Shown here piece after piece: positions 6,383-47,099 of a stretch of DNA of 64,000 nucleotides. The position numbers and the translations under genes were made by a program. The notes beneath the pieces are model-generated. The model was not told where the DNA came from. It made no database searches and worked only from the letters and a program-made list of their open reading frames with translations. Origin of the DNA: Alphaproteobacteria bacterium (GTDB taxonomy: Bacteria; Pseudomonadota; Alphaproteobacteria; UBA2136; UBA6156). Location of the stretch: the NCBI GenBank assembly GCA_036261915.1, contig DATAJX010000006.1, positions 23,546 through 87,545 of the forward strand, in the 5' to 3' direction. How positions within the stretch are numbered: the stretch's first letter is position 1; every line of letters begins with the position of its first letter.

Positions 6383-6666
6383 GGCCTGATAAAGAAGGAT
6401 TTTTAGGTGTTTGTGGCCAGCCAAACGCCGAAGCGGAGCGTTCGGTTTGTGTTTTGGACGACGACGCGCAGCGGGACTGCGCGAGGAGGAGAAAACCGAA
6501 CCGGGCGGCATTTGGCTGAGCCACCCGAAGGGCACGGGCCAAAACGGCTCCCCGTACCGTCTTGTCGGGCTTATGCAGGCCATGCAGCACCGTGCCCTCC
6601 GCGCCGCCACGGGATAGCCGTTTATGGCCTCGTGCAAACATCCTAAAAATCCTTCTTTATCAGGCC
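6383..6666. repeat. ~31-bp inverted repeat pair (6383-6413 and 6635-6666) enclosing a ~220-bp structured intergenic segment
   Basis: ggcctgataaagaaggatttttaggtgtttg against caaacatcctaaaaatccttctttatcaggcc, which differ by one indel. The right copy encodes the prfB C-terminus (GLIKKDF*). Confidence 0.7.
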
Positions 6667-7753
6667 ATCGGCCAGTGCGGCACGAATGAACCGGTCGATC
6701 TTGCCGTCCAGCACACCGGTGGTGTCACTGGTTTCCTCGGCGGTGCGCAGGTCCTTCACCATCTGGTAGGGGTGCAGCACGTAACTGCGTATCTGGTGCC
6801 CCCAGCCGATGTCGGTCTTGGCGTCCTCCAGCGCGCTTTGCGCGGCCTCGCGCTTGCGCAGTTCAATGTCGTACAGCCGGGCCTTCAGCATGTTCATGGC
6901 AATTTCGCGGTTGCGGTGCTGGCTGCGGTCCTGCTGGCTGGCCGCCACGGTGTTGGTGGGGATGTGCGTGATGCGCACCGCGCTTTCCACCTTGTTCACG
7001 TTCTGGCCGCCGGGCCCGCTGGCGCGGTAGGTATCAATGCGCAGGTCGGCCGGGTTGATCTGGATGTCGATGTTGTCGTCCACTTCGGGGTAGGCGAACA
7101 CGCTGGCAAAGCTGGTGTGGCGGCGGGCGTTGCTGTCAAAGGGGCTGATGCGCACCAGCCGGTGCACGCCGCTTTCGGTCTTGCTCATGCCGTAGGCGTA
7201 ATCGCCCTGAATGAAGATGGTGGCGTTCTTGATGCCCGCCTGCTCGCCCTCGGCCTGGTCGATGATGCTCACCTTAAAACCCTGGCGCTCGGCCCAGCGC
7301 ATGTACATGCGCAGCAGCATGGCGGCCCAGTCGCAACTTTCGGTGCCGCCGGCCCCGGCGTGCACTTCAATAAAGGCGTTGTTGATGTCGGCCTCGCCGC
7401 CCAGCAAACACTGGGTTTCCAGTTTGTCGGCCTCTTCCAGCAAAGCCGAAAGCTCCTTCGCCCCCTCCTCAACGCTGGCGGCATCGTTCTCGGCTTCGCC
7501 CAGTTCCAGCAGCGTCACGGCGTCGTCCAGCTTGCGGCGCACGGCATCGTACTGCCCCAGCGTCACTTCAATGCGGCGTTTTTCCTGCATCACTTCTTTG
7601 GCGGCGGCAGGGTCGCTCCACAGGTCGGCGCTGGCGGCCCGGGTTTCCAATTCGGCTAAACGTTCACGCGCGGCGGCAGGGTCAAAGACGCCTCCCGAGC
7701 AGGTGTAAAACCTGCTCCACTTTTTCCACAATCTGCTTGTGTTCGGCCTGCAT
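6643..7753 (-). CDS. prfB: Peptide chain release factor 2, expressed through a programmed +1 ribosomal frameshift
   Basis: Frame 0 reads MQAEHKQIVEKVEQVLHLLGRRL, then CTT TGA C. After the +1 shift it continues DPAAARERLAELE... through the GGQ motif (RASGPGGQNVNKVESAVRITHIPT) to the stop at 6643. The ORF track shows only the downstream frame (6643..7731). Confidence 0.9.
7681..7687 (-). other. prfB +1 frameshift site CTT TGA C, with an upstream SD-like GGGAGG
   Basis: The minus strand reads ...CTC GGG AGG CGT CTT TGA C..., the canonical RF2 autoregulatory frameshift cassette. Confidence 0.85.
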
Positions 7754-7850
7754 GGTGTTTTCTACACCAAAGCCAACCGCACGCCAACGCCAAGTACATA
7801 AAAAGGCGGCCGATTTTACAATCAGCCGCCCCAGCCACTCTCCCTGCCCC

Positions 7851-8702
7851 CTAAGCCTGCGTGCGGCTTGCCTGCGTGCTGGCCCCGGCGGCCAGCTCGG
7901 CACCGGTCAGGCTGCCGTTGCCGTCGCTGTCAAGCCGGGCAAACAGGTCGGCCAGGCTTTGCGAATGGTTGCCATAACTGTCCAGCGCCAGCTTCTGCAT
8001 CACCGTATCGGTCACGGTGCCCCACGCCACCACCTTGCCGGTGGCAGCCTCGGTCAACGTAAAGGTCTGGCTTTCGCTAGCCTCAACCCCCACCCCGTCG
8101 CGGCCATCAAGCAAAGCACCAAATTCATCGACACTCAGGCTGCCGCTGCGGTCGCCGTCGGCGCTGTCGGCCATCATCTGCCAGGCGGCGTTCAGGCCCT
8201 TGCCCAAGGCCTTCTGCTCCTGCGTCATGGGGCCGGTCTGCTGGCCGCCGTTGTTGGTGGGCGGGCCTTCATTACCACCCAGCTGCGCAATCGCGGCCTG
8301 AAGGTCCGGCATCAGCACCATCCCGGCAGGCGCACCGGTAATAACGGCGGCCCCACCCTCGCCTTTCTTGGCAGCCTCTACGGCGGCCCGGCTGGCATCC
8401 ATGGCTTCCTGCCACTGGTCAACCACATAGCCTTTCAGCTCATCCAGCGACACCTTTCCGTCGCCATCAACGTCAGCCTTGGCAAACGCGTCGGCGGGCA
8501 TTTTCGCCGCACCGGGCTTCACCGGCATCAGCAAACTCAAGGCCCCGGCGGCGGCGGCAAATTCCTGCTGGTTCAGCTGGCCGTCGCCGTCCTTGTCGGC
8601 GTTCTTGATGATCTTCTCAAGCGCCTCGGTCAGGTTCGAAGGCTTCTTTTCAGTCTGCTGGGTGGGCGGCATCAAGCCGGTGCCGCTAACGCTTCCTACC
8701 AT
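7851..8702 (-). CDS. EF-hand calcium-binding domain protein (paralog 1)
   Basis: Three canonical EF-hand loops: DKDGDGQLNQQEF, DVDGDGKVSLDEL and DSDGNGSLTGAEL. No signal peptide. Confidence 0.75.
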   Translation of the reverse strand: MVGSVSGTGLMPPTQQTEKKPSNLTEALEKIIKNADKDGDGQLNQQEFAAAAGALSLLMPVKPGAAKMPADAFAKADVDGDGKVSLDELKGYVVDQWQEAMDASRAAVEAAKKGEGGAAVITGAPAGMVLMPDLQAAIAQLGGNEGPPTNNGGQQTGPMTQEQKALGKGLNAAWQMMADSADGDRSGSLSVDEFGALLDGRDGVGVEASESQTFTLTEAATGKVVAWGTVTDTVMQKLALDSYGNHSQSLADLFARLDSDGNGSLTGAELAAGASTQASRTQA

Positions 8703-8717
8703 GGCTATACTCTCCTT

Positions 8718-9461
8718 TTAGCCAACCGTAATGCCGCTACCGGCCGTAGCGCTGGCCGTCACGTCGGTGGCATTGGCGGCCTGCAACGCACTGGCAAATT
8801 CGGCTCCGCTGATCGAACCATCGCCGTCGCTGTCCAGCTTGTTGAACAACTGGGCCAACCCGTCGGTGCCATGCTTGCGGTGGTTGCCGTAGCTGCTCAG
8901 CGCGTTACTCAGGCGTACCAGGCTGCCCAGGGGCGCATCGCCATTGCCGCTGATCATGCTGCTGGTGCCGTCGGCGGCCGTGGTGCCGCTCACGGTCACG
9001 CCGTCCATGTGGGCGCCGTCGGTGCCGTAGGTGATGTGAAAAACGCTGACACTCAGCGTACTGCCCGGCGGCAGGCCGTTACCGGCAATTTTCTTATAAA
9101 TGTCGGCGGCCAGTTCGCCATCGCTTTTCTGGTCATAGTGGCCCTGCCCGCCGCTGCTGGCGCTTACTTTGTCGGCAAACAGGTTACCGGCAAACTGCTT
9201 GAACTCGGCCAGCGAGATCTGGCCGTCGCCGTCCTTGTCGATGCTCTTGAACAGGTCGCTGGTGTCGGTGCCGGCGCTGCCGCCACTGGCCTGCCCCATC
9301 AGGTCGCCAAACTCACCGGCATTGATGCTGCCGTTGCCGTCGGTATCGACCTTGGCGAACAACCCCTGCAGAAGCGCGGCCAACCCGCCCGACTGCTTAT
9401 CGACCTGGCTGCCTTGGCCCATTTGGCCGGTTTGGCAGGCCCAGCCCACATTCATACTCAT
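8718..9461 (-). CDS. EF-hand calcium-binding domain protein (paralog 2)
   Basis: EF loops DTDGNGSINAGEF, DKDGDGQISLAEF and DSDGDGSISGAEF. It shares the C-terminal SYGNH...LFxxLDSDGxGS module with the downstream gene, and the 15-bp gap suggests an operon. Confidence 0.75.
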   Translation of the reverse strand: MSMNVGWACQTGQMGQGSQVDKQSGGLAALLQGLFAKVDTDGNGSINAGEFGDLMGQASGGSAGTDTSDLFKSIDKDGDGQISLAEFKQFAGNLFADKVSASSGGQGHYDQKSDGELAADIYKKIAGNGLPPGSTLSVSVFHITYGTDGAHMDGVTVSGTTAADGTSSMISGNGDAPLGSLVRLSNALSSYGNHRKHGTDGLAQLFNKLDSDGDGSISGAEFASALQAANATDVTASATAGSGITVG

Positions 9462-9534
9462 GTCATCATCTTTCCGTTGTTATGCAGGGGGTTCTCTCCT
9501 CACCCGCCAACGCTTTAATCAGAATGCATACGCT

Positions 9535-9581
9535 GTGCCAAAACGGCACCTAAACGTGCTTAATGGGCACCAAAGTGCCCA
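9535..9581. promoter_or_regulatory. Two palindromes (GTGCCaaaacGGCAC and TGGGCACcaaaGTGCCCA) that are candidate operators or terminator hairpins
   Basis: They lie upstream of the EF-hand operon and immediately downstream of the mrcA stop. Both share a GGCAC/GTGCC core. Confidence 0.3.
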
Positions 9582-9606
9582 CACAACAATCAGGCCAGGG
9601 GAAGGT

Positions 9607-12156
9607 TTAGTAGATGCCCAGCATGTTCAGCACGCCGCGTTTTTGCGCGGGCTGCTGCGGGGCTTCGCTTTCGCCGGTGGTGGTGGCGTTGGGGCTGGTG
9701 TCCTCCACGCCGGGCACCACGTTCTGGTTAGGCGCTTCATCGGCCGGGTTGCTCTCATCGGCGGGCGGGCCGTTCTTACCGAAAAACCCGCCGAATATAT
9801 CGCCGGCGCCGCCAAACACGCCGGTATCCATGCCGTAGTAGTCGGCCGGGGTCTGCTGGGTGGGCGCGGTGCCGGCCACAAAGGCCTCGGCCATGGTGCG
9901 CTTGGTGGTGGGGCCGGGCAAATAGCCGGTGTCGCGGTCAATGGTGGTAAAATCGATCCCATCGGGCACGGCAAAGTCTTCGCGTGGGGTATTGTCTAGC
10001 ACGCCCTTCATGTAGCTCTTCCAAATGGGTAACGCGGCGCGGGCACCGGTTTCGCCGTTGCCCAGACTCTTGGGCGTATCCATACCCACCCACACACCGG
10101 TGGCCACGCTGGGGCTAAAGCCAACAAACCACGCATCGATAAAGTTATTGGTGGTACCGGTCTTGCCGGCCAGCGGGCGGCCCAGGTCGTTCAGCGCGTA
10201 GCCGGTGCCGCGCAACACCACACCCTGCAACATGCTGGTCATCAGGTAGCTCAGTTGCGGGGTCACGGCGGCCACGGCGGGCAACGCGGGCGGCGTGGGC
10301 ACGGTGTCGGGCGTGGCACCCATGCCTTGCAGGCAACCGTCGCAGGCGGCGGCGCTGCGTTGCAGGGTCTGGCCGTCCGGCCCCTGTACGCGCATGATGG
10401 CGCGGGGCGGAATGTACAACCCGCCGCGCGGGAACACCGCATAGGCGTTGGTCATCTCCATCAGGCTGAAATTCAGCGAACCCAGCACCACGGTCAGGTC
10501 GTCCAGCGGCACGCGCTCGGCCACACCCACGCGGCGCACCACGTCGCTGATCGACTTCAGGCCCACGTCCTGTGCCAGCCGCACGGTCATCAGGTTACGG
10601 CTTTGCTCAAGCCCCCGGCGTACGGGCATGGGGCCACCCATCTTGCCGTCGTAGTTGCCGGGCTTCCATTCCTTGTCGCCGGTGCGGAACACCACGGGCG
10701 CATCAAGCACGGTGGTCGCCGGGGTGTAACCTTTTTCCAAAGCGGCTAAATAAACGAACGGCTTGAAGCTGCTGCCCACCTGGCGCCGGGCCTGCACCGC
10801 GCGGTTAAAGCCGATGCCCTCGCCCAACCCGCCCACCATGGCCAGTATGTCGCCGCTGCGCACATCAATGCTCATCAAGGCACCCTGCGCCTGCGGTATC
10901 TGCTCAAGCTGGTACTGGTCGCCCTTTTTAGGGTCGCCGCCCACCAGTGGTTTCACCATCACAATGTCGCCCACCTTCAGCAGGGCGTTGGCGGTCTTCT
11001 TGCCGGTCCACTTGTAGCCGGCGGGCACCAGGTTGCCCTCTTTGCCTTCGCTCAGGCCGATGCGCGCGCTGTCGCCGCCCACCTTCAGCACCACGGCGGG
11101 CGTACCGATGCGCTTGCTGTGGCTGTACTGGTCCTGCACCTCGCCCAGCGCGGCGGGCCAGTCGCGGGTGTTGCTCAGGTGGAAAACCGGCCCGCGCCAG
11201 CCGTGGCGGCGGTCATAATCGCGCAGGCCTTCATACACGGCCTGCTCGGCCTTTTTCTGCAGGTTCAGATCCAGCGTGGTGTAAATGGTCAGCCCGTTCT
11301 GGTACAGCGCATCCGGGCCAAACTGCTGCTCGATCTGGCGGCGGATGTACTCCGAAAAGTGCGGCGCATCCTCGCCGCTGGCCAGCGGGGCCACTTTCAG
11401 GCCCAGCGGCAGCTTGGCGTCGGCAGCGGCCTCGCTTTCGCTGATGTAACCTTCCTTGGCCATGCGGCCCAAAATGATGTTGCGGCGGGCCAGCGCGGCA
11501 TCGGGGTTGCGCACAGGGTTGTAACGGCTGGGGGCCTGCGGCAGCCCGGCGATCATGGCACGCTCGGCCGGGGTCAGCTCGGCCAGGCTCTTGCTGAAAT
11601 ACGTCTGCGCCGCCGCCGCCACGCCGTAGGCACCGTTGCCCAGGTAAATGCGGTTCAGGTACAGTTCCAAAATCTCGTTTTTGCTGAATACCTTCTCGAT
11701 GCGCCAACTGAGGATAAGCTCCTTCACCTTGCGGGTGTAGGTGCGTTCAGAGCTCAACAAAAAGGTTTTGGCCACCTGCTGGGTGATGGTGCTGGCGCCC
11801 TGCGTGCGGTCGGTCAGCGCGTTCTTCACCGTGGCGCGCAAAATGGCTTTCAGGTCAAAGCCGCCGTGCTCATAAAAGTGGGCGTCCTCGGCCGCCAAAA
11901 AACTGTTCACCACATCTTTGGGAATGGAACCGATCGGCACCCACACGCGCCGCTCGCGGGCAAACTCGGCAATGATCTGGCCGTTGCGGTCATACACCTT
12001 GGTGATCAGGCTGGGCTGCCACTTGCTCAACTGCATGAAGTCGGGCAACTGGGCGCTGAAGTAAGCCACCGCCAACCCGAACACGGCGGCGCCCGCCAAA
12101 ATGCCCAGCACGATCAGCCAGACCAGCGCGCGCAAAAATTTATTCGGTTTCGCCAT
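9607..12156 (-). CDS. mrcA: Penicillin-binding protein 1A (bifunctional transglycosylase/transpeptidase)
   Basis: N-terminal TM, GT51 motifs (EDxxFxxHxG, RIYLGNGAYG) and transpeptidase motifs (SSFKP, KTGTT). Confidence 0.9.
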   Translation of the reverse strand: MAKPNKFLRALVWLIVLGILAGAAVFGLAVAYFSAQLPDFMQLSKWQPSLITKVYDRNGQIIAEFARERRVWVPIGSIPKDVVNSFLAAEDAHFYEHGGFDLKAILRATVKNALTDRTQGASTITQQVAKTFLLSSERTYTRKVKELILSWRIEKVFSKNEILELYLNRIYLGNGAYGVAAAAQTYFSKSLAELTPAERAMIAGLPQAPSRYNPVRNPDAALARRNIILGRMAKEGYISESEAAADAKLPLGLKVAPLASGEDAPHFSEYIRRQIEQQFGPDALYQNGLTIYTTLDLNLQKKAEQAVYEGLRDYDRRHGWRGPVFHLSNTRDWPAALGEVQDQYSHSKRIGTPAVVLKVGGDSARIGLSEGKEGNLVPAGYKWTGKKTANALLKVGDIVMVKPLVGGDPKKGDQYQLEQIPQAQGALMSIDVRSGDILAMVGGLGEGIGFNRAVQARRQVGSSFKPFVYLAALEKGYTPATTVLDAPVVFRTGDKEWKPGNYDGKMGGPMPVRRGLEQSRNLMTVRLAQDVGLKSISDVVRRVGVAERVPLDDLTVVLGSLNFSLMEMTNAYAVFPRGGLYIPPRAIMRVQGPDGQTLQRSAAACDGCLQGMGATPDTVPTPPALPAVAAVTPQLSYLMTSMLQGVVLRGTGYALNDLGRPLAGKTGTTNNFIDAWFVGFSPSVATGVWVGMDTPKSLGNGETGARAALPIWKSYMKGVLDNTPREDFAVPDGIDFTTIDRDTGYLPGPTTKRTMAEAFVAGTAPTQQTPADYYGMDTGVFGGAGDIFGGFFGKNGPPADESNPADEAPNQNVVPGVEDTSPNATTTGESEAPQQPAQKRGVLNMLGIY

Positions 12157-27877: not shown

Positions 27878-28468
27878 ATGACCCAGCGCGGCGCCCTGTT
27901 CGGCCTCGATGCCCGCATCGCGCTGGCCATTTTCGCCGTTCTGGCGGTGGTGGTGGGCTATCTGGCCTTCGGGCGCATCCAGGTGGCCCGGCAGGCCGCC
28001 CTGCTGGCCCAACTGCAGGATATCGAAAACGCCCTCGCCGCCTATCAAACCGACATGGGCACCTTCTTCCTGTTCACGCTGAATAAAGAGCCGGGCGACA
28101 ACGACAGCACGCTCGATATTACCGCCCTGTGGGATAAAAACATGGTCAAACCAGGCTTCCGGCGGCACTGGAACGGCCCCTACCTGCACCGCACCAGCCG
28201 CGAAATGCCCGGCTACGGCCGTTTAAGCGTGTTTTACGCCACCGGCGACCGCAAAGACTACTGCTCCACCACGTCCGACTGCTTTGTGTGGCTGTCGGTA
28301 TCCAGCACGCCGCAAAAGGCCTGGGTGCAAACCAACCATATCGTCGACGAAGGCAACGGCGCTGAAAACGAGATCGACGGCCAGCAGATCAGCCTCGGGC
28401 GCATCCAGTCCGAAGCCGCCACCGACCCCCGCCCGCTGTATTACCGCACGGTCGAACGCCCCCGCTAA
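27878..28468 (+). CDS. Pseudopilin-like protein A (GspG/EpsG-like body, atypical N-terminus)
   Basis: Conserved N-terminus QRGALFGLDARIALAIFAVLAVVVG, then AL..Y..D.G.F and W.GPYLH motifs reminiscent of T2SS major pseudopilins. Paralog of 34152..34745. Begins 7 bp after bamE. Confidence 0.55.
   Translation: MTQRGALFGLDARIALAIFAVLAVVVGYLAFGRIQVARQAALLAQLQDIENALAAYQTDMGTFFLFTLNKEPGDNDSTLDITALWDKNMVKPGFRRHWNGPYLHRTSREMPGYGRLSVFYATGDRKDYCSTTSDCFVWLSVSSTPQKAWVQTNHIVDEGNGAENEIDGQQISLGRIQSEAATDPRPLYYRTVERPR
27896..27944 (+). repeat. Direct repeat copy 1 (encodes LFGLDARIALAIFAV)
   Basis: ctgttcggcctcgatgcccgcatcgcgctggccattttcgccgtt, about 85-90% identical at the nucleotide level to 34185-34233. 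Confidence 0.7.
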
Positions 28469-28478
28469 GCCGCCATTT

Positions 28479-28506
28479 AAAAAGCCCCCGGCCGGGGGCT
28501 TTTTTA
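28479..28506. terminator. Bidirectional rho-independent terminator
   Basis: aaaagcccccggccgggggcttttttact, lying between two convergent genes. Confidence 0.75.
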
Positions 28507-31500
28507 CTGCGCGGCACGGCTGTACTTGGCGGGCTGGGCCGCAAAGGCGGCATATACATACGTGGCGCCACTGCCGTTATAGTCGCTGTTGGTGTTGCGT
28601 ATCTTGAACCCGTTTGAAACCACATCCAGGTCGGTGGCCGCATTACTGTTACTGGCCGATGTCAGGTTATAAAACACCTCGTTGCCGTCCGGGTTATACA
28701 GGTTGCGCGCGGTATCCAGCACAAACCAGTTGCCGGTGCTGTCGGTGCGCTTGATGATCACAAGCGCGGGTTTGAAACCCAGGTTCACATAAGCGCCGTC
28801 GGCACTACCGTTCCCGGTATAGGTTCCAAATTTGCTGAATCCCGGCACCTCGGCAAAGGCATAAACAACATAAGGCTGGCTGGCCAACACGCCGCCCCCG
28901 GCGGTCAGGCCCACATTGCTCGAGGTATGGCCCGAACCCCACATGGTCGAATACGTGGTCGCCGCCGCGGTGGTGTTCAGCGCCAGGTAGGCCGTGGTGT
29001 TGTTCGCCAGGTTCTGGTGCCACACATACCAGTGCGAAGCCGAACCGCTATACGTCCGGGCGATCACAAACGCCGGTACAACCCCCATGCCGTGCGCCGC
29101 GGTAAAAGCCCCCGATCCTGGCGCCGTACCGGTCAATATGTCCATGCCGGGCGTAACGCCCTTCTTAAACATGTGCGCCACATAAATGTTGCCGCTGGTG
29201 TTAAAGGCGCTGGCGCTGCCTACCGCAAAACCGTTGTTGTAAAAGGTTGCCAGCGATTGCGCATCGATGGTCTGCACCGCCGTGCCCGTGCTGTCCAGGT
29301 ACTTGGCGGGCCCGCGCGCACTGTCAAACCAGCCCCATGCGCCGGTGCTGGTATTATCCTTCAGCATCACCAGGTCGGGCTGGTAAGGGGTGTAGGTGGT
29401 CAGCGGCGTGTAGGTGATAACAATAAGCCCAGGGGCGCCCACACCCGCCGTGCTGCTGTTCGAACTACCGCCGCCGCCGCCGCCGTACAGGCCACCATTA
29501 CCCGCCGAATAACCGCTGCTGCCGCCCTGTTGCGAGCCGCCGCCGCCGCCCGAACCGTGCAGCGGGTCAAACTCCTGCCCGTTGCCACCGTTACCGCCCC
29601 TGCTGGCGCCGGCAGGATTGCCGCCGCCGCCGCCGCCGCCGCCCGATGACCCGAACAGCGAATAACCGTACCCGCCATGGGTATTGTTCACCGCCACGAT
29701 CCCACCGGTGCCGTTGACCAGCCCGCTGGCATTGGCCCCGCGCCCGCCAACGCCGCTGGTGGTGTTATTAGAGGGTCCCAATTGACCGGCTTCACCGCCG
29801 CCGCCGCCGCCGCCGCCCGGGCCGCGGTAGTTCACACCCGCGTTCGAGCCACCGGCCCCGCCATTGCCATAAGGTCCGGCCGCACCGCCGCCGCCGCCGC
29901 CCGCCTGGGTGCCGGTGGCGGGGCTCTGCCCGTTGCCACCGGCGCCGCCCGAATACTTGGTGGTACCGGTACCCGAGCCCGAAGCCCCGCCAGCCCCACC
30001 CGTGCCACCGCTGCCGCCGCTGCCGCCCTTGGCCCCCACGCTCGAAGCCGCCACGCTGGTGCCGTTGAACCACGTATCGCCGCCGGCGGTGCTGGCCGCA
30101 CCACCGCTCCCCACCTGGGTCTGCACGGTGGTGGTGGGCACCAGCGCCAGGTTCGATATCTTCGAGTACCCGCCGCCGCCGCCGCCGCCGTTGACCGAAG
30201 ACCCCGACGACGCCCCACCGCCGCCACCGATCACTTCAATGGTGTTGCTGGTGCTGTTCCAATCCAGCGGCACGCGCCACGAAGTCCCCCCGGTCAAAAA
30301 TATCTGCTTGGTCGTCGGCACGGTGGGCACATAGGTGATCACCACGATCCCCGGCGCCCCATTCCCCGGGTTTCCCTGGTTGGTGCTGGTATAACCGGCA
30401 CCGCCGCCGCCGCCGCCATACAGGCCGCCGTCACCACCACGGTAAATACTGCTTTCGCCGCCGCCGCCGCCGCCGCCCGCACCTGCACCACCCCACTCAA
30501 TGCCGTCGCCCCCCTTGCTCCCCAAACCGTGGGCACTGCTCACGCCGCCGCCGCCGCCTGCGCCAAAGGCCCCGGCGGTCGAATCCACACTGGCCGTCGC
30601 CGCACCGCCGCCGCCGCCGCCAAAGCGGTTAGCACCACCGGCACCGCCGGTGGTGCTCGTACCGTTACCTCCAACCGAACCGCCATTAGCTCCACCGCCA
30701 CCACCCGAACCTGCACTACCGGCCGAACTCATATCGCCACCATTGGCGCCATTACCGTTGGGCCCGGCGGCGCCACCGCCACCGGGGCCGCTCACATAGC
30801 CCGAGCCACCACCCGAATTCCCGCCGCTATACGCATAAGGCGCACCGGGGTTGGTGGTGCCGCCACCCGCACCGCCGCGCGCGCTCGAAGCCGCCCCGCC
30901 GGTCCCGCCGCTGCCGCTGGTGCCGCCGGTGCCGCCCTTGGCACCCACGCTCGCCACCGCCAGCGAAGCCCCGTTGAACCACGTATCGCCACCGGCACTC
31001 CCCGCCCCGCTGGTGGCCGGGGTGGCGGCCACACCGCCCATGCCCACATTGTAGCTGATGCTTGCCCCAATGGTCAGCGTCACACTGGTGGCCTTGGCAT
31101 AGCCGCCGCCGCCGCCGCTCCCGGCATAGGTGGTGCCGCCACCGGCCCCAAAACCGCCGCCGCCGCCAGCCCCGATCACTTCAATGGTGTTATCGCCGCT
31201 CCAGTCACTGGGCACGGTCCAGGTGGTGCCGCTGGTCAAAAACACCGTCTTGGTGGGCAACGGCCCAGGCAAGGTAACAACCTGGGTACCGCCCGTGCCG
31301 CGGTACAGCACCGGCTGGAAGTAAAGCGAAGGGCTCACCACCGCAGGTGTCGCCGTGTTGTAGGTGTTCAGCGCCGCAAACCCCGCCGGGGGGGTGGCAG
31401 CAAAAGCTCTCTGACCAAAGTTGAACGAGGCCGTTTGGGTGGAACCTTGGTTATTGCCTATGGCCGCCACCCAAGCCAGCCCCGCCGTAGCAGTGGCCGC

Positions 31501-32928
31501 CGGGCTGGTGCCGGTGGCAGGGTTCGAACTCCCCAGCCACGTCCCGTTCTTCGAGAAATAAAGCTTACCCGTGTCGGCGTCAAAGGCCACGCCAACCACA
31601 TCGTTAATGGCAATCGTCACACCATAGCTGGTAATGGCCGAACCGTTATTATACACTTGCCCCGCACTGTTTATCCCATAGCCATAAGTATTATTGTAGC
31701 CGGGGTAATAGCTCGCGGGCATGTTCTGCTGCTGGATACCCGCCGTCCCCACCAAACTGCCGGTCCATACAAACTCCCAGTACCATTTGCCACTCGTCAT
31801 CAACTGGTTGGCCTTCACAACGCTGTTGGTGGCAAACGGCACCGAAACGTCCATATTCGCCGCCGACAAGGTCGAGCCGGTCGGGTCCAGAAAATTGAAT
31901 GCAGGGTCATTCCCGCGCCCATTGTCGCCGTTGTCGGCCAACGTGGGGTGGTCTTCGGTAGGGTCATAGGTCACGCCGGTGGTCACGCTAAAGTTATTGG
32001 GCGTCCAGTTGTTGCCCTTACCGCTCACGTCCTTGCCCAGCGTGGTGGCGGTGTTGTTCAGGTAATTTTCAAAATCAAGATGGAATCCGTTGGTGCCATA
32101 AGCGCCGGTATAGGTTTTCGGCACCCACATGCCGTTGCTGTCAATCTCGGCAAAAGCGCTGGGGTCCAGGGCCAGGCCGTCCACAAAATTGATGTCGGCC
32201 ATCACGCCGTCAAAATACTGGGTGGAAGAACCCGCCGTGTTCAGGTAAGCGCCGATCCCGTTATAGCCGGACCGGTTGAAGTACGAAGTGGTGCTGTTCG
32301 CCACCGAGCCCGAACCGATCACCTGGCGCTGGCCGTTAACGTATATCCGCACGTTATCGGCGGTGGTGCCGTTGGCGGTGTCCCATACAAACACAATGTG
32401 GTACCAGGCCGTGGGGTCGCGGTACACGCCCGCGCTGGTGGCGGCATTGGCTGAGTTGGCATAAAAGATCAGCTGGTCGCTCGTATTGAAATCAACCTCG
32501 GTCGTCTGCCCCGACCCCACGATCTGGCTGAACAGGGTCTGCGTGGTTCCCATCTTCCCGCGCTTGACCCACATGCTCATGGTCCAGGTGGTCAGGTTCC
32601 CGTTGCCGGCGGGTGAGCGGCTCAGGTACGCCGAACTCGCGCTCCTGAACCGCAACGCCCCGCCGCTGCACTTGCCGTTGGTAACACCCGGAATGGTACT
32701 CGAAAGGAACGAACCCGCCGAGTTCTTCCACTCATAGCTATACTTCGTGGGCACCATCAGGCTCTTGCCGCTGGCATGGTTATTGGCGATCAGGCGGCAA
32801 CTGCCGAACTCATTGATGCCAAGCCCCTCGCCGTTCGGAATGGTGTAACTCACGTTGGTCTGCGCCATGGCATTGCCGCCCAGCAGCAACCCCAGCAGCA
32901 TCAGCAAAAACAACATCGCCCGGCGCAT
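28504..32928 (-). CDS. Giant secreted multidomain fibre-like protein (LamG-like + SPRY-like + 2x glycine-rich domain + duplicated C-terminal domain)
   Basis: 1474 aa with a signal peptide (AMA|QTN).
- aa ~100-240: LamG/ConA-like pattern (W.H..FVWD...VRIYVNG).
- aa ~380-500: SPRY-like pattern (KWYWEFVW...GDVVGVAFDADTGKLYFSKNG).
- aa 562-866 and 876-1173: two copies of a W.VP...IEVIG-GGGGG...APG(I/L)(V/I)VITY glycine-rich domain.
- C-terminal domain carrying a twice-repeated KP.LV.IK...STG.W..D.AR motif. Confidence 0.8.
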   Translation of the reverse strand: MRRAMLFLLMLLGLLLGGNAMAQTNVSYTIPNGEGLGINEFGSCRLIANNHASGKSLMVPTKYSYEWKNSAGSFLSSTIPGVTNGKCSGGALRFRSASSAYLSRSPAGNGNLTTWTMSMWVKRGKMGTTQTLFSQIVGSGQTTEVDFNTSDQLIFYANSANAATSAGVYRDPTAWYHIVFVWDTANGTTADNVRIYVNGQRQVIGSGSVANSTTSYFNRSGYNGIGAYLNTAGSSTQYFDGVMADINFVDGLALDPSAFAEIDSNGMWVPKTYTGAYGTNGFHLDFENYLNNTATTLGKDVSGKGNNWTPNNFSVTTGVTYDPTEDHPTLADNGDNGRGNDPAFNFLDPTGSTLSAANMDVSVPFATNSVVKANQLMTSGKWYWEFVWTGSLVGTAGIQQQNMPASYYPGYNNTYGYGINSAGQVYNNGSAITSYGVTIAINDVVGVAFDADTGKLYFSKNGTWLGSSNPATGTSPAATATAGLAWVAAIGNNQGSTQTASFNFGQRAFAATPPAGFAALNTYNTATPAVVSPSLYFQPVLYRGTGGTQVVTLPGPLPTKTVFLTSGTTWTVPSDWSGDNTIEVIGAGGGGGFGAGGGTTYAGSGGGGGYAKATSVTLTIGASISYNVGMGGVAATPATSGAGSAGGDTWFNGASLAVASVGAKGGTGGTSGSGGTGGAASSARGGAGGGTTNPGAPYAYSGGNSGGGSGYVSGPGGGGAAGPNGNGANGGDMSSAGSAGSGGGGGANGGSVGGNGTSTTGGAGGANRFGGGGGGAATASVDSTAGAFGAGGGGGVSSAHGLGSKGGDGIEWGGAGAGGGGGGGESSIYRGGDGGLYGGGGGGAGYTSTNQGNPGNGAPGIVVITYVPTVPTTKQIFLTGGTSWRVPLDWNSTSNTIEVIGGGGGASSGSSVNGGGGGGGYSKISNLALVPTTTVQTQVGSGGAASTAGGDTWFNGTSVAASSVGAKGGSGGSGGTGGAGGASGSGTGTTKYSGGAGGNGQSPATGTQAGGGGGGAAGPYGNGGAGGSNAGVNYRGPGGGGGGGGEAGQLGPSNNTTSGVGGRGANASGLVNGTGGIVAVNNTHGGYGYSLFGSSGGGGGGGGNPAGASRGGNGGNGQEFDPLHGSGGGGGSQQGGSSGYSAGNGGLYGGGGGGSSNSSTAGVGAPGLIVITYTPLTTYTPYQPDLVMLKDNTSTGAWGWFDSARGPAKYLDSTGTAVQTIDAQSLATFYNNGFAVGSASAFNTSGNIYVAHMFKKGVTPGMDILTGTAPGSGAFTAAHGMGVVPAFVIARTYSGSASHWYVWHQNLANNTTAYLALNTTAAATTYSTMWGSGHTSSNVGLTAGGGVLASQPYVVYAFAEVPGFSKFGTYTGNGSADGAYVNLGFKPALVIIKRTDSTGNWFVLDTARNLYNPDGNEVFYNLTSASNSNAATDLDVVSNGFKIRNTNSDYNGSGATYVYAAFAAQPAKYSRAAQ

Positions 32929-32932: not shown

Positions 32933-33952
32933 TCAGCGCCCTGCTTGCTTGGCCCGCAGTTCGTCCACTTCGCGGCGCAGGTCGTCGATTTGTTTTTGTT
33001 GGATCTTCACAGCCTCGATCAACGGCGCGATCAGCTGGTCGCTGTCCACCACCATGGTGGTGCTGCCGCCGCCGTGCACAGCCTCGGGCATCACCTTCTG
33101 TACATCCTGTGCGATCACCCCGTACGAGGGTCGGCCGTCCTTCTTCCAGGTAAAGTGCACGCCGTTCAGGCTTTTCACCAATCCCATGGCGTCGGCCACC
33201 GGCACAATATTGTCTTTCAATCGGCGGTCCGAACTGTGCAAATAGGCAACCGCCGTCATATTGCCGCTGGCGCTCACGTCACCGGCCACCTCAAGCTTGC
33301 TGGCCGGCGAGGTTACACCCAAACCCACATTCCCGGCGCTCGTAATCCCCAGGCGCGCACCCTGCCACGCACCGGCAATATAATTGCCCACCATATACAT
33401 CCCGCTGCTGTCATAACCGGTGGCCCACAACGGCGTGGTGTTGCTGGTAAAACGTATGTAGTTCCAGCTACCGGTGCCCGACCGCGACAATGTCATGGTA
33501 TTATCAAGGCCCGACAGCACATAAAGCGGCACCGTCGTGGTGGCGGCAGCCCCAATCCCCACATTACCGCTCGAATAAAACCCGGTGGCCGAAACCACAC
33601 CAGTGGCACTCACCCCCGGTCCCACAAAGCCCAACGTAGGGTGAATGTAAGCAGCCCCCGCCGTACCCGCCAATGTAAAGCTCACAGTGCCCCTGTCGGC
33701 CACCACCATGCCCAGGTTGGCGCCGCTGGAAACGTTGGTGGTGCTGATGCGGTCACCCGCGCCCCCACCGTTGGTGAACACAATGCCGTTCACCGCCAGG
33801 TTGGTGGTCGATACGTACAAAAAGTGCCCATACGTCCCGCTCACCACCCCGGCCACGCTGGTACTTACCAGCGGCGCATTGTTCATCTGCGCCATCACGC
33901 CGCCCGGCAGCAGTAGGGCGCAAACAAGCAAAAGCAGGCGTAATGTTTTCAT
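32933..33952 (-). CDS. Secreted phage-tail-fibre-like protein with a C-terminal S74 intramolecular chaperone autoprocessing domain
   Basis: Signal peptide (VMA|QMNN). Tail-fibre repeats (GNVGIG...TT, GNVGLGVTSPASKLEVAGDV). The C-terminus YLHSSDRRLKDNIVPV...GLVKSLNGVHFTWK...LIAPLIEAVKIQQKQIDDLRREVDELR matches the Ser-Lys dyad chaperone-of-endosialidase domain. Lies 4 nt downstream-adjacent to the giant gene. Confidence 0.8.
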   Translation of the reverse strand: MKTLRLLLLVCALLLPGGVMAQMNNAPLVSTSVAGVVSGTYGHFLYVSTTNLAVNGIVFTNGGGAGDRISTTNVSSGANLGMVVADRGTVSFTLAGTAGAAYIHPTLGFVGPGVSATGVVSATGFYSSGNVGIGAAATTTVPLYVLSGLDNTMTLSRSGTGSWNYIRFTSNTTPLWATGYDSSGMYMVGNYIAGAWQGARLGITSAGNVGLGVTSPASKLEVAGDVSASGNMTAVAYLHSSDRRLKDNIVPVADAMGLVKSLNGVHFTWKKDGRPSYGVIAQDVQKVMPEAVHGGGSTTMVVDSDQLIAPLIEAVKIQQKQIDDLRREVDELRAKQAGR

Positions 33953-34151: not shown

Positions 34152-34745
34152 ATGAAGCATATTTTACAGTCACAACAAGGCGCCATGTTCGGGCTCGACG
34201 CCCGTATCGCGCTGGCGATTTTCGCCGTGATTTCCGTGGTGGCGGGCACCGCCATCGCCATCAGCATGGATAGCACCCGCGCCAAGGCCCTGGCGCAGGA
34301 AATGTCCGACACCGGCAAGGCCATCGAATCCATCAGCTACGACATGCGCGCCGATCTTTACCCGTCCCTCATCCAACCCTCGCCCAAAAACGCCTACACG
34401 GCGCTGTTCGACGTCAGCGTCATCAAAGACGAAAACAACTTGCGCGGCAAATGGTTAGGCCCCTACGTTCATGCAACAAGTACAAGCTCCCGCTACGGCG
34501 AAATGATGATCGAGGCCCGCAAGGCCTCCCATGCCGACGCCTGCATGGAAGGCGAGCCCTGCTTCCTCTGGCTCACCTACGCCAACGTCAAACGGGCGAT
34601 TGCGCTCGAGGTCAACAGCATCATCGACGGCGACAAAGAAACCGACCCGGCCAAAACCGGCCGCATCCAGTGGGTCGAGAACGCCGACGGCACAACGCTC
34701 AGCCTGCAGGCCGCCAAAACGCTCACTTATACCGGGAACAACTAG
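34152..34745 (+). CDS. Pseudopilin-like protein B (paralog of 27878..28468)
   Basis: QQGAMFGLDARIALAIFAVISVVAG N-terminus. Contains AIESISYDMRADLYP and KWLGPYVHATS, and shares the C.FLWL motif with A. Its stop codon overlaps the nusB stop. Confidence 0.55.
   Translation: MKHILQSQQGAMFGLDARIALAIFAVISVVAGTAIAISMDSTRAKALAQEMSDTGKAIESISYDMRADLYPSLIQPSPKNAYTALFDVSVIKDENNLRGKWLGPYVHATSTSSRYGEMMIEARKASHADACMEGEPCFLWLTYANVKRAIALEVNSIIDGDKETDPAKTGRIQWVENADGTTLSLQAAKTLTYTGNN
34185..34233 (+). repeat. Direct repeat copy 2 (encodes MFGLDARIALAIFAV)
   Basis: atgttcgggctcgacgcccgtatcgcgctggcgattttcgccgtg. Confidence 0.7.
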
Positions 34746-37097: not shown

Positions 37098-37661
37098 TTA
37101 AACCAGCGTATCGATCGCCTTGGGGGCTTCGGGCGCCGGCACCGCCGTAACGGTGGAAGTGCGCGAGGTCACCGGCCGAACCACCGCCGTACCCGCCTGC
37201 TCAATGGCCGGGCCCACCACCTTGGCGGCGGTGGCGCTGGCCAGGGCAATGCTCAGGCTGGTGCCCCGGCTTTGCTGGGCAATGGCATTCAGGTTCTGCT
37301 GCACTTGCGCGGCCACGGCGGCCTCGGTCTGGGTGCTTTGGCCCGAAAGGTTAAGCCCATAAGCGCGCAACGCGGTCATCAAGGGCCAGCGGGGGAAGCC
37401 GTTGGTGTCACTGTTCCTGAAATACATGCCTAGGCCTTTCACCTGGCTGAAAAGGTTTTCGCGCACGCTGGCGGTCTGCACACCGGCATCCACCTGCGCC
37501 ACGGCAGCGCTCAGGGTGGTGATTTCTTCAACACTCAAGCCGCCCGATTGGGAAATTTCGCTCAACACTTGCATGGCATCGCTGGCAGGGGCAACTTGTA
37601 ACGCAGCGGCCGGGCTATACAAGCCCGCCTGAACCGCACTCAAGTTCGTTACGTCTACCAT
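37098..37661 (-). CDS. Hypothetical protein (Ala/Ser/Thr/Gln-rich)
   Basis: 187 aa, no recognised domain. An AT-rich promoter region lies upstream. Confidence 0.4.
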   Translation of the reverse strand: MVDVTNLSAVQAGLYSPAAALQVAPASDAMQVLSEISQSGGLSVEEITTLSAAVAQVDAGVQTASVRENLFSQVKGLGMYFRNSDTNGFPRWPLMTALRAYGLNLSGQSTQTEAAVAAQVQQNLNAIAQQSRGTSLSIALASATAAKVVGPAIEQAGTAVVRPVTSRTSTVTAVPAPEAPKAIDTLV

Positions 37662-43765: not shown

Positions 43766-45037
43766 TTACGTCAGTTTCTGCCACAATCCTAAATCATCTG
43801 CGCGTAATTTAACCTTCAAATGCCATTCCTCTTCCACCAGTTGCTTGTCGGTCACTTCGCCATGGGCATACAGCCAGGCCAGCCGCTTGCCGTCCCCGGC
43901 CGGAACCACCACCTCCAGCGTCTTCCAGCTGCTTTTCAGGCTCTTTTCAACGGCAGCCAAAAGGTCGGGCACGCCTTCGCCTGTTATGGCGCTCACGCCC
44001 ACGCCGTTTTTGGGCACAAAATCGCCCTCGGCCAGCCTGTCCACTTTGTTGTAAACGTTGATCACCCGCTTCACATCGGCGCCAATTTCGGCCAGCACGC
44101 TCTCCACATCGCGCATCTGCGCCATCCACTCGGGGTTGGAAATATCATGCACCTGCAACAACACGTCGGCCAGCACCACCTCTTCCAGCGTGGCCTTGAA
44201 CGCTGCCACCAGTTCGTGCGGCAGGTCGGCAATGAACCCCACGGTATCAATGATCAAAATCTCCAGCCCGCCCGGCAACTCCAGTCGCCGCATCAACGGG
44301 TCCAGCGTGGCGAACAACGCATCGGCCACCAGCGTGCCGGCATGGGCCAACTGGTTGAACAATGTGCTCTTGCCCGCATTGGTATAACCCACCAGCGCCA
44401 CGGTGGGCAGGTGGGCCTTGGCGCGCGCCATACGCTGCAGCCCGCGCGTCTGCTCCACGGCTTTCAGGTCGTTCTTCACGCGGCTGATCCGGTCGCGCAG
44501 CAAGCGCTTGTCGGTTTCAATTTGCCGTTCACCCGGCCCACCCATCTTGCCAAGCCCGCCGCGCTGGCGCTCAAGGTGGGTCCACTGCCGCACAAGGCGC
44601 GTGCTCTGGTAGGTCAGCTGTGCCAGCTCCACCTGCATCTTCCCGGCGGCGGTGCGCGCGCGGCTGGCGAATATCTCCAAAATCAACCCGGTGCGGTCAA
44701 GCACCTTCACCTTCATGGCCTCTTCCAGTTCGCGCTGCTGGCGGGGGCTCAGCGCGGCATCCACCACCACCAGTTCCAGCTGGTTTTCGGCAGCAATCAC
44801 CGCCCACTCTTCCACCTTGCCGCCGCCGATCAGCGTGGCGGCATTGATTTCCCGAAGCTGCACCCCCTCGCTCACCACAACGTCCAGCCCCAAACTTTCG
44901 GCCAGCCCGATGGCCTCGGTCAGCTGCTGCTCGGGCGTGCGGGTGTTGCTGCCACCCAAAATGCCTTCGCCGATACCCCGGCGGCTGGCCCACGCCACCC
45001 CGATCACCCCGGCCCGGATCACCACCTGTTTCTGCAT
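43766..45037 (-). CDS. hflX: GTPase HflX
   Basis: G-domain VALVGYTNAGKSTLFN, and synteny with hfq. Confidence 0.9.
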   Translation of the reverse strand: MQKQVVIRAGVIGVAWASRRGIGEGILGGSNTRTPEQQLTEAIGLAESLGLDVVVSEGVQLREINAATLIGGGKVEEWAVIAAENQLELVVVDAALSPRQQRELEEAMKVKVLDRTGLILEIFASRARTAAGKMQVELAQLTYQSTRLVRQWTHLERQRGGLGKMGGPGERQIETDKRLLRDRISRVKNDLKAVEQTRGLQRMARAKAHLPTVALVGYTNAGKSTLFNQLAHAGTLVADALFATLDPLMRRLELPGGLEILIIDTVGFIADLPHELVAAFKATLEEVVLADVLLQVHDISNPEWMAQMRDVESVLAEIGADVKRVINVYNKVDRLAEGDFVPKNGVGVSAITGEGVPDLLAAVEKSLKSSWKTLEVVVPAGDGKRLAWLYAHGEVTDKQLVEEEWHLKVKLRADDLGLWQKLT

Positions 45038-45100
45038 GCCTCCACTCTACCCCAAAACAAAAAGGGCGCCATGCGCCCTTTGCACAACCACTTTAAAAAA

Positions 45101-45349
45101 TTACTCGCCCATCACGTCAAAAACCTGAAAAGCATCCTGCGGCATGATGGTCGCCACGGCATGGCGCATCACCAGCTGGGTCACGCCGTCACGGGTCAAG
45201 GTCAGGCAGTCCGGGTCGTTCCAGGTGATGCTCCCGCTCAGCTTCACGCCGTTGGTCAAAAACACCGTCACGGGCGAATGACCCTTCACCAGGTGCGCAA
45301 TAAAACTCTCAAACAGCGGCTTACCCGATGTTTTTGCATTAGCGGCCAT
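45101..45349 (-). CDS. hfq: RNA chaperone Hfq
   Basis: Sm motifs VTVFLTNGVKLSGSITWNDPDCLTLTRDGVTQLVMRHAV. Confidence 0.9.
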   Translation of the reverse strand: MAANAKTSGKPLFESFIAHLVKGHSPVTVFLTNGVKLSGSITWNDPDCLTLTRDGVTQLVMRHAVATIMPQDAFQVFDVMGE

Positions 45350-45537
45350 GCGGCAGCTCCTGTTCTTTTTCTTCTTTTTGTCCCAAGCTTTTGCTTGTGG
45401 TTAAAAGCACTATCCCCAAAAAAGCCGTATACCACCAGCACTTAAGCCAGCAGCCCCCACCCCCCGTGGCCACAATGCCATGCCTATGTTAAAGTCTTTT
45501 CCAACTACAACCACCTACCTTTTTTCAGGAGAACTTA

Positions 45538-45714
45538 ATGGCAAACTTCTGTGCAACTCCCAAACTCAGGCCTCGCGCCTTCACGCTCAGCGCCGAAGAA
45601 TCGGCCCGACTCGATAAACACCTCACCAACTGGGCAAATCGCGAGCGCAAGCAAATGGGCCTACCTCCTCTTGAGGTTACGTTCACACCCGGAATACAAA
45701 AAGAATCTAAATAA
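45538..45714 (+). CDS. Small hypothetical ORF (58 aa) between ntrX and hfq
   Basis: MANFCATPKLRPRAFTLSAEESARLDKHLTNWANRERKQMGLPPLEVTFTPGIQKESK. A GGAGA Shine-Dalgarno sequence lies 6 nt upstream and a terminator lies immediately downstream. The ORF is below the track's length cutoff. Confidence 0.3.
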   Translation: MANFCATPKLRPRAFTLSAEESARLDKHLTNWANRERKQMGLPPLEVTFTPGIQKESK

Positions 45715-45743
45715 AAAAGGGCGCCATGGGGCGCCCTTTTTTG
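45713..45743. terminator. Bidirectional rho-independent terminator
   Basis: aaaaaagggcgccatggggcgcccttttttg. Confidence 0.8.
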
Positions 45744-45755
45744 CGGCCCAAAGCC

Positions 45756-47099
45756 TTACATCATCGGCCCTTCAACCCGGGCATCCACGCCAAGGCTCTT
45801 CAGCTTGCGGTGAAGCGCAGAACGCTCCATGCCCACAAAGTCGGCGGTGCGGGAAACGTTGCCGTTGAAGCGCATCAGCTGGCTGGTCAGGTAATTCTTC
45901 TCAAACAGCTCGCGGGCCTGGCGCAGCGGCATGGCCACGGCGGTTTCCATCACGTTGCTGGCCACCATGTCGCCACGGGTCAGTTCGGGCGGCAACAGCT
46001 CGGGGGTAATGCTCTGGCCGGCATGCATGATGATCAGCCACTCGCACAGATTCTTCAGCTGGCGGATGTTCCCGGGCCACGGGTAGCTGGTCAAAATGGC
46101 CATGGTCGCGGGCGCGATCTTCGGCTGGGCGGCGGCGTCGGGCGCCATCACCTTCAAAAAGTGCTGAACCAGCGTGGGAATGTCCACGCTGCGGTCGCGC
46201 AAGGCGGGCAACGGCAGCGGCACAACGGCTACGCGGTAAAACAGGTCGGCGCGGAACTTGTTCTGCTCGATCAGCACCTTCAAATCCTTGCTGGTGCTGC
46301 TGATCACGCGCACGTCAGCTTCCATGGGTATGCCGGTGTGCGGGTCCGGAATGGTCCCTTCCTGCAAAAACTTCAGCAAGCGGGCCTGCATCGCGGGGGT
46401 CAGGTCGGCAATTTCGTCAAGGAAAAGCGAACCGCCTTTACCCTGCGAAACCATGCTGGCCAGAGTCAGTTCAAAGGTCTGGTCGCTCACGGCACCGGGG
46501 GCCATGATCACGAACGGGCGGTCGGCGCGGCGGCTGCCTTTGTGAACAAGACGCGCGGCAATTTCCTTGCCGGCACCGGGCTCGCCCTGCACCAGCAAAC
46601 GGCTTTCACCGGCGGCCACCTGCTTGATGGTCTGGCGCACGGTGGCGATCTCGCTGCTAATGCCCAGCAATTCCTGCACCTCGCCGCCCTTGGCGCGCAG
46701 CAGGTAGTTTTCCTTGCGCAACTGGGCTTCGCGGATGGCGCGGCTCACCGTCAGCAATAAACGCTCCACGCTCGGCGGTTTTTCAATAAAGTCGTAGGCA
46801 CCCTTCTGGGTGGCCTGCACGGCGGTCTCGATGGTGCCGTGGCCCGAGATCATGATCACCGGCAACTCCGGCACGCGGCGCTTGATGCGGCCGAGCACTT
46901 CCAGCCCGTCCATGCCTTCCATCCAAATGTCCAGCAGCACCAGGTGCGGCAGCTTCTGGCTCATCATCTCCAGCGCCTGCTGGCCGCTTTCGGCTACGCG
47001 TACGTTGTAGCCGTCGTCCTCCAGAATCCCCGCCAGCGCGGTGCGGACGTCGGCCTCGTCATCTACGACCAGAATATCGTGACTTACCTGACTTGCCAT
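45756..47099 (-). CDS. ntrX: Sigma-54-dependent response regulator NtrX
   Basis: Receiver domain (ILVVDDEADVR...D), AAA+ domain (GEPGAGKE) and C-terminal HTH. Confidence 0.9.
   Translation of the reverse strand: MASQVSHDILVVDDEADVRTALAGILEDDGYNVRVAESGQQALEMMSQKLPHLVLLDIWMEGMDGLEVLGRIKRRVPELPVIMISGHGTIETAVQATQKGAYDFIEKPPSVERLLLTVSRAIREAQLRKENYLLRAKGGEVQELLGISSEIATVRQTIKQVAAGESRLLVQGEPGAGKEIAARLVHKGSRRADRPFVIMAPGAVSDQTFELTLASMVSQGKGGSLFLDEIADLTPAMQARLLKFLQEGTIPDPHTGIPMEADVRVISSTSKDLKVLIEQNKFRADLFYRVAVVPLPLPALRDRSVDIPTLVQHFLKVMAPDAAAQPKIAPATMAILTSYPWPGNIRQLKNLCEWLIIMHAGQSITPELLPPELTRGDMVASNVMETAVAMPLRQARELFEKNYLTSQLMRFNGNVSRTADFVGMERSALHRKLKSLGVDARVEGPMM

Follow-up and report, generated by a model that had tools for sequence, protein, structure and literature searches.

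We examined a 64,000-nucleotide stretch of contig DATAJX010000006.1 from an Alphaproteobacteria bacterium (hereafter the window), and in it a pair of adjacent minus-strand genes, here called EF1 and EF2, that encode paralogous EF-hand proteins. An earlier note on this DNA, made from the sequence alone, had described an adjacent gene pair with a 15 bp gap, and both open reading frames (ORFs) were recovered at precisely those limits. The 15 nt lie between the EF1 stop codon (TAA, 8718-8720) and the EF2 ATG (8702). The genes and the signals that delimit them are as follows.

8718-9461, minus strand: EF1, an intact ORF of 247 aa with an isoelectric point (pI) of 4.5
7851-8702, minus strand: EF2, an intact ORF of 283 aa with a pI of 4.4, the derived duplicate
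8712-8717, minus strand: EF2 ribosome-binding site AAGGAG, inside the 15-nt intergenic gap
7795-7832, minus strand: intrinsic terminator, 19 nt past the EF2 stop, with a 13-pair stem GGGGCGGCTGATT-GTAA-AATCGGCCGCCTT (stem-loop at 7803-7832) and then TTTAT

A two-gene operon, as the earlier note had proposed, is supported by the 15-nt gap, the strong EF2 ribosome-binding site, the single terminator and a single conserved promoter-like element 5′ of EF1. The G+C content at third codon positions (GC3) was 0.81 for EF1 and 0.79 for EF2, and 0.83-0.85 for the adjoining genes. The EF1 N-terminus cannot be longer, given that a TAA in the same frame lies 18 nt before the ATG, at 9480-9482. The same note had named a pseudogenic second gene as evidence that would count against it; for EF2 this was ruled out by an intact ORF, native GC3, a ribosome-binding site and four intact loops. 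Its statement that signal peptides are absent also held, in that neither protein has by inspection a hydrophobic Sec- or Tat-type N-terminus. A 593-codon antisense ORF (7737-9518, plus strand) is spurious, with a GC3 of 0.62 and a pI of 11.7, and is an artefact of high G+C.

We defined an EF-hand loop as 12 residues with ligands at positions 1, 3, 5 and 12, Gly at position 6 and a hydrophobic residue at position 8. By this PROSITE PS00018-type pattern, three loops were found in EF1 (starting at aa 39, 75 and 210) and four in EF2 (starting at aa 36, 77, 182 and 258); the earlier estimate of about three loops each is therefore right for EF1 and a slight undercount for EF2.

9312-9347, minus strand: EF1 loop 1, aa 39-50
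9204-9239, minus strand: EF1 loop 2, aa 75-86
8799-8834, minus strand: EF1 loop 3, aa 210-221
8562-8597, minus strand: EF2 loop 1, aa 36-47
8439-8474, minus strand: EF2 loop 2, aa 77-88
8124-8159, minus strand: EF2 loop 3, aa 182-193
7896-7931, minus strand: EF2 loop 4, aa 258-269

The loops begin with DTDG, DKDG, DSDG, DVDG or DGDR. Both proteins matched the Pfam models EF-hand_1 (71.3 bits for EF1 and 77.3 for EF2; cut-off 25.4) and EF-hand_7 (67.9 and 65.5 bits; cut-off 30), with E-values of 1e-18 to 1e-22. Judged from the sequences, seven canonical loops in 530 residues with these hidden Markov model (HMM) E-values cannot be due to chance. Dockerin, STIM1 and SPARC-type matches were below cut-off and merely echo the EF-hand loops. 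Since all loops are canonical, Ca2+ binding is the natural prediction, and both proteins very likely bind Ca2+, with three predicted sites in EF1 and four in EF2.

Beyond the loops, EF1 has a recognisable order of segments that ends in an Ala/Thr/Ser tail.

aa 1-26 of EF1, minus strand: polar N-terminal tail, followed by the EF-hand pair
after the EF-hand pair of EF1, minus strand: degenerate EF-like segment DIYKKIAGNGLPPG
about aa 135-171 of EF1, minus strand: predicted beta-hairpin region
8880-8903, minus strand: ALSSYGNH of EF1, between the beta-hairpin region and the third loop

Past the EF pair, the predicted secondary structure of EF1 consists of a helix (aa 112-126), the segment AGNGLPPG, the beta-hairpin (135-171) and three helices that embed the last EF loop; we infer that AGNGLPPG is a degenerate EF loop. 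EF2 has a low-complexity Gly/Pro/Gln linker and a C-terminal module in common with EF1. The AlphaFold2 model of EF1, built from a single sequence, had a mean predicted local distance difference test score (pLDDT) of 46, and that of EF2, built from a three-sequence alignment, a mean of 48; only the N-terminal pair of EF2 was confident (pLDDT ∼80) and was modelled as two successive helix-loop-helix units. The first 22-26 residues of both proteins were predicted to be disordered. A PDB sequence search returned a single kind of match, that of the N-terminal pair (profile positions 29-94) to calmodulin lobes (E ∼1e-16). Calmodulin and the EF1/EF2 proteins thus share one alignable lobe and canonical 12-residue loops; however, no more than one lobe aligns, and EF1 and EF2 have no central helix architecture, a long linker, a clade-specific C-terminal module and a very different composition.

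EF1 and EF2 are paralogs, as the earlier note had said (BLASTP identity 26%, E = 2e-14). The shared C-terminal module that it had pointed out, AL.SYGNH...LA.LF..LDSDG.GS..GAE, is real and is the best-conserved part of the two proteins, with 22 of 41 positions identical (54%) versus 31% in the N-terminal EF pair in a four-sequence alignment. The similarity goes beyond the repeated EF-hand loops. At the DNA level, the 23-nt stretch that encodes SYGNH is 83% identical between the two genes. A beta-strand-rich segment just 5′ of the module (TFTLTEAATGKV in EF2) is common to the orthologs described below. We also observed a 32-nt stretch coding for (S/N)(I/A)DKDGDGQ that is 91% identical between EF2 loop 1 (8577-8608) and EF1 loop 2 (9219-9250) and exceeds its surroundings in identity; it may reflect gene conversion over a short tract, or codon bias.

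Proteins identical to EF1 and EF2 occur only in one Alphaproteobacteria bacterium metagenome-assembled genome and one Logan assembly. Word-indexed searches of 5.8 billion proteins found no close homologs beyond EF1 and EF2 themselves, the rest being generic EF-hand proteins at ≤29% identity, and a metagenome scan for relatives gave generic EF-hand matches only. The phylogenetic distribution of the C-terminal module, which the earlier note had suggested as a check, turned out to be narrow: an exhaustive HMMER profile search of 1.84 billion cluster representatives found the whole module in EF1, EF2 and one ortholog cluster (P0168) only, and each remaining match was a sum of single EF-hand matches. 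The claim that multi-EF-hand proteins are uncommon in bacteria was overstated, as 539 profile matches at E ≤ 0.01 among 8000 candidates scored include many bacterial or metagenomic multi-EF-hand proteins. EF-hand proteins are described as making up most of the bacterial Ca-binding proteins studied (PMC4053335).

Sister genomes were located through the neighbouring PBP1A. The closest genome in GTDB (L002), whose PBP1A is 81% identical, has the gene order amiC - mrcA (PBP1A) - one EF-hand gene - prfB - yhdP, and a Joint Genome Institute (JGI) contig that carries P0168 (L119) has the same order, again with one EF gene.

8822-9580 of L002: single-copy EF ortholog
6001-6753 of L119: single-copy EF ortholog, P0168

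Hyphobacterium, which was the next-nearest alphaproteobacterium retrieved, has contiguous amiC, mrcA and prfB genes, and therefore the EF gene is an insertion in this clade. Because both sister genomes have one EF gene, the second copy is specific to the lineage of the window. We rejected a relic of a second EF gene in the sister genomes: the gap between the EF gene and prfB in L002 is only ∼105 nt, with a terminator within it, this single-copy gene also having its own hairpin and T-run. The earlier note had taken the duplicated pair to point to a calcium-buffering or calcium-signalling role, but the duplication is not conserved and does not point to a two-component design, both sister genomes having the single gene.

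EF1 is 47% identical to the L002 ortholog and 46% to P0168 in multiple alignments (44-45% by tblastn). In the N-terminal EF pair, EF1 is 62% identical to the orthologs and EF2 26-27%; EF1 is the positional ortholog because its EF pair is 62% identical to theirs and the conserved upstream region is kept. EF2 is the diverged copy, in which a fourth canonical loop and a Gly/Pro/Gln linker have been gained. In the C-terminal module, EF1 and EF2 are 54% identical to each other, and 48% and 42% identical to the ortholog; these values fit duplication after the split from the sisters, or gene conversion. Ancestrally, then, a single EF gene would have been inserted between mrcA and prfB and later duplicated in the lineage of the window; EF1 would have kept the ancestral N-terminal pair, while EF2 diverged there and gained an EF-hand, a history that would be consistent with sub- or neo-functionalisation. 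Compared with the sister genomes, the window shows 44-47% identity for EF1, as against 88% for prfB, 81% for PBP1A, 71% for AmiC and 61% for YhdP. Judging by these identities (44-47% versus 61-88%), the EF gene evolves much faster than its neighbours.

The mrcA-EF1 intergenic region is 145 nt long and holds three further features.

9525-9540, minus strand: sigma-54-type promoter element TGGCACAGCGTATGCA (TGGCAC-N5-aTGCAt), with GG at 9538-9539 (-24) and GC at 9526-9527 (-12)
9565-9580, minus strand: perfect palindrome GGGCACTTTGGTGCCC, farther upstream than the promoter-like element; it is window-specific, without conservation in L002 or L119
9475-9512, minus strand: 5′ leader hairpin GCGUUGGCGGG..GGAGAG..CCCCCUGC....AACG, with GGA motifs in the loop

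The sigma-54 consensus is TGGCAC-N5-TTGCW, with the GG and GC doublets 10 nt apart. TGGCACAGCGTATGCA matches it with one mismatch and canonical GG-GC spacing, 64 nt 5′ of the EF1 ATG. No other intergenic, correctly oriented match with ≤1 mismatch occurs in the 64 kb. The window, L002 and L119 all have TGGCAC and TGCAT unchanged, whereas the bases of the spacer differ (AGCGT, AGCTT, ACGTT); invariant elements around a variable spacer are the pattern that would be expected of a bipartite promoter. A sigma-70 promoter scan of 7500-9800 found none. The palindrome GGGCACTTTGGTGCCC could be a regulator or enhancer-binding site.

Downstream of this element, a leader of ∼55 nt is near-invariant in the three genomes and more conserved than the EF coding sequence. 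The minimum free energy of its hairpin is -13.6 kcal/mol in the window (z = -1.5) and -26.9 kcal/mol in L002 (z = -3.8). A search of the whole window against Rfam gave no family match, and the hairpin is therefore not a known riboswitch or leader. We also observed a long conserved hairpin, CCCCGCGTTGGGTTTGC...GCAAACCCAATGACGGGG, directly 3′ of the mrcA stop in L002 (8518-8580) and L119 (5736-5800), which has no counterpart in the window, where the intergenic region is shorter. Since mrcA is followed by this hairpin in L002 and L119, the EF gene is an independent unit.

Our favoured explanation, which we hold tentatively and would give a little less than an even chance, is that EF1 and EF2 are a pair of leaderless Ca2+-binding buffers or sensors whose expression is conditional and probably gated by sigma-54. 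The locus would be a self-contained two-gene operon for a pair of acidic EF-hand paralogs, both leaderless and each binding several Ca2+, at the three and four predicted sites. Each protein would consist of a calmodulin-lobe-like N-terminal EF pair, a variable linker and the clade-specific C-terminal module, the latter formed by a beta-hairpin region, an AL.SY(G/H)-His helix and the last EF-hand. Transcription would most likely start from the sigma-54-type -24/-12 promoter, so that expression would be off by default until a signal caused an activator ATPase to turn it on; the conserved leader hairpin may add a second level of control, after transcription. Lacking a Sec or Tat signal, the proteins would, on a default reading, stay in the cytoplasm and act as a Ca2+ buffer or sensor, and their EF-hand pairs would shift conformation upon Ca2+ loading.

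Several observations weigh against this explanation. For the promoter, sigma-54 consensus matches are not enriched across the window (4 found versus 5 expected), and the -24 element shares bases with an invariant inverted repeat, GTGCC-N5-GGCAC (9535-9549), that could instead be an operator. Neither rpoN nor a cognate activator was seen within the 64-kb window, where the only Sigma54_activat protein, NtrX (45756-47099), is without GAFTGA. We rejected NtrX as evidence of sigma-54 use for that reason, and it says nothing either way. Sigma-54 dependence is thus inferred from a motif and its conservation in just three related genomes. For the proteins, the models are poor beyond the N-terminal pair (mean pLDDT 46-48), and the last EF-hand of EF1 has only a degenerate segment for a partner, in a region of low-confidence models. 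The composition is XopAW-like rather than calmodulin-like and, to our knowledge, the characterised Gram-negative EF-hand proteins all act outside the cytoplasm. The description of the pair as cytoplasmic in the earlier note is unproven: it was drawn solely from the absent Sec signal, and both the sub-threshold XopAW match and the composition resemble a secreted class.

These last points bear on a second explanation, which we consider somewhat unlikely: that EF1 and EF2 are exported without a cleavable signal (by a type III/flagellar, type I or other non-classical route) and act as extracellular Ca2+-binding effectors or scavengers, in the way of Xanthomonas XopAW or Rhizobium etli calsymin. 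Either the 22-26 polar residues of the N-terminus or the C-terminal Ala/Thr/Ser tail would serve as the export signal. The best NCBIfam match of both proteins was the XopAW family model NF041410 (80.4 bits for EF1 and 72.1 for EF2; best-matched profile positions 18-107 and 41-129, respectively, of 235), and a profile-profile comparison matched XopAW-like proteins with a probability of 98.8%. However, both scores are under the 120-bit HMM cut-off for XopAW membership, and in an hhalign comparison with eleven XopAW-like proteins the EF-hand segments alone aligned. The motifs MSxISG..SAW and PPPSTMDFAQSR, near-invariant in 10 of 11 XopAW-like sequences, are absent from EF1, EF2 and the orthologs. 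By these comparisons, EF1 and EF2 are not members of the XopAW family but share its style.

That style comprises several traits. Lists of Xanthomonas type III effectors include XopAW (PMC12448352, PMC8951399); the family and its Burkholderiales homologs (e.g., Hylemonella P0013) are, like EF1 and EF2, leaderless, acidic and about 220-320 aa long, with canonical EF-hands and low-complexity linkers. In both sets, the last EF-hand lies near the C-terminus and is followed by an Ala/Thr/Ser-rich tail, and the composition is unusually cheap and rich in Gly, Ser, Thr and Asp. The beta-hairpin and AL.SYGNH module of EF1 and EF2 is, by contrast, missing in XopAW-like proteins. The genomic contexts also differ: EF1 and EF2 lie between mrcA and prfB, whereas XopAW-like genes lie beside an OmpR-type two-component system. 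In Hylemonella and metagenomic relatives, we observed XopAW-family genes divergent from an OmpR-type response regulator and a HAMP histidine kinase (L123 8001-8819; L124 8001-8945; L125 6970-7914), an arrangement more suggestive of a Ca2+-related two-component module than of an effector context for the Burkholderiales XopAW-like proteins.

Composition and evolutionary rate lean toward export. The average biosynthetic cost is 19.5-19.7 for EF1 and EF2, compared with 18.7-19.1 for XopAW-like proteins and 21.6-22.0 for calmodulins, and the small-polar fraction is 0.59-0.66, compared with 0.60-0.64 and 0.43-0.45, respectively. EF2 is the cheapest and EF1 the third-cheapest of 44 window proteins, and their composition resembles that of a 1474-aa signal-peptide protein of the window. 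The N-terminal tails, predicted to be disordered, are rich in Gly, Ser, Thr and Gln and have no acidic residues for ∼17-20 residues, and the fast evolution of the gene is typical of surface or secreted proteins. Calsymin (CasA) of R. etli is another multi-EF-hand protein from an alphaproteobacterium; it is related to calmodulin, its expression is conditional, and it is described as secreted (PMC4053335, which cites Xi et al. 2000 with that description in the title; PMC10574481). It has three domains of EF-hand motifs, unlike EF1 and EF2, and did not appear among the top matches of the protein searches; the likeness is one of description. Against export, we noted no gene for a secretion system among the ORFs of the 64-kb window (roughly one-third of them domain-scanned), although the XopAW-like genes of free-living Burkholderiales do not adjoin type III secretion system genes either. 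The cheapness lends weak but quantifiable support to an extracytoplasmic destination, and the composition could equally reflect disorder and loop content. As a separate observation, the second-cheapest composition, in the range of EF1 and EF2, belongs to a 187-aa protein (37098-37661, minus strand) that lacks both a Pfam match and a signal peptide.

An extended form of the export idea strikes us as improbable. In it, EF1, EF2 and the orthologs would be a new clade-restricted branch of the wider leaderless, cheap-composition, multi-EF-hand class that includes XopAW. They would leave the cell by a non-Sec route and target Ca2+ outside it or in a host. Sigma-54 and a leader RNA would control the class here, in an uncultured lineage that branches deeply and resembles Alphaproteobacteria, and the recent duplication would be the outcome of diversifying selection for a secreted factor.

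A further alternative, in our view a doubtful one, concerns the promoter: the conserved element 5′ of EF1 would be the operator of a dimeric factor (GTGCC-N5-GGCAC), and transcription of the operon would rely on a different sigma factor or on read-through from mrcA. Save for its central base, the inverted repeat is invariant, which would suit an operator, as would the unenriched consensus matches and the unobserved rpoN noted above; no sigma-70-like promoter or terminator was found between mrcA and EF1 in the window. However, an operator fails to predict an invariant TGCAT exactly 12 nt from the GG beside a variable 5-nt spacer, and the long conserved hairpin past mrcA in L002 and L119 argues against obligatory read-through.

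In the L002 and L119 orthologs, we observed a His cluster, SYHRHHHHG, at the SYGNH position of the window proteins, and N-terminal CGGC or CGGNC motifs; these are possible transition-metal sites that are not conserved in the window. Lanmodulin (LanM, NF053806) is likewise a small bacterial protein with several EF-hands, typically with Pro at loop position 2. Membership of EF1 and EF2 in this family was excluded by scores of 27.5 and 28.3 bits against a cut-off of 135, by the lack of Pro at position 2 in every loop and by the lack of a signal peptide. That the physiological ligand is a metal other than Ca2+, whether a lanthanide as in lanmodulin or a transition metal at His/Cys clusters, is very improbable: the weak lanmodulin matches, the clusters of the orthologs and an HRKH that EF1 retains beside its last EF-hand point that way, but the clusters are not kept in the window copies, EF2 having one His in the motif and no Cys.

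The EF1/EF2 pair is a real, recently duplicated, clade-restricted operon, yet an ordinary addition to the widespread bacterial EF-hand proteins and, as it stands, an annotatable but unremarkable accessory operon. What is new is a tiny family with a lineage-specific duplication, fast evolution and a sigma-54-type element and leader hairpin conserved in three genomes. Calcium signalling in bacteria remains poorly understood, with no role assigned to most of their EF-hand proteins; this locus, with one versus two gene copies between sister genomes, is a compact testable case. Its most useful handles are the sigma-54-type promoter, the conserved leader and the one- versus two-copy contrast, together with the hint of export that the composition gives despite the absence of a signal peptide. 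If sigma-54 control is true, Ca2+-binding proteins would be tied to an activator-dependent stress or differentiation regulon; if export is true, the XopAW/calsymin-type class would extend beyond plant-associated bacteria.

Elsewhere in the window, prfB (6643-7753, minus strand), which encodes release factor 2, has a classic programmed +1 frameshift site, CTT TGA C, around 7690-7715. The site is preceded by a Shine-Dalgarno-like GGGAGG, and the same site is found in L002; because of the frameshift, the ORF finder gives only the downstream part, 6643-7731. A ntrY - ntrX - hfq - hflX cluster, an order typical of Alphaproteobacteria, lies at 43766-49362 on the minus strand. Finally, a second paralogous pair of ∼196 aa with no Pfam match (27878-28468 and 34152-34745, both plus strand) is 33% identical (E = 1e-26) and shares an N-terminal hydrophobic segment, GA(L/M)FGLDARIALAIFAV. 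These two genes flank that of the 1474-aa signal-peptide protein (28504-32928, DUF7483 and SPRY) and that of a 339-aa Peptidase_S74 protein (32933-33952), which is endosialidase chaperone- or tail-fibre-like.

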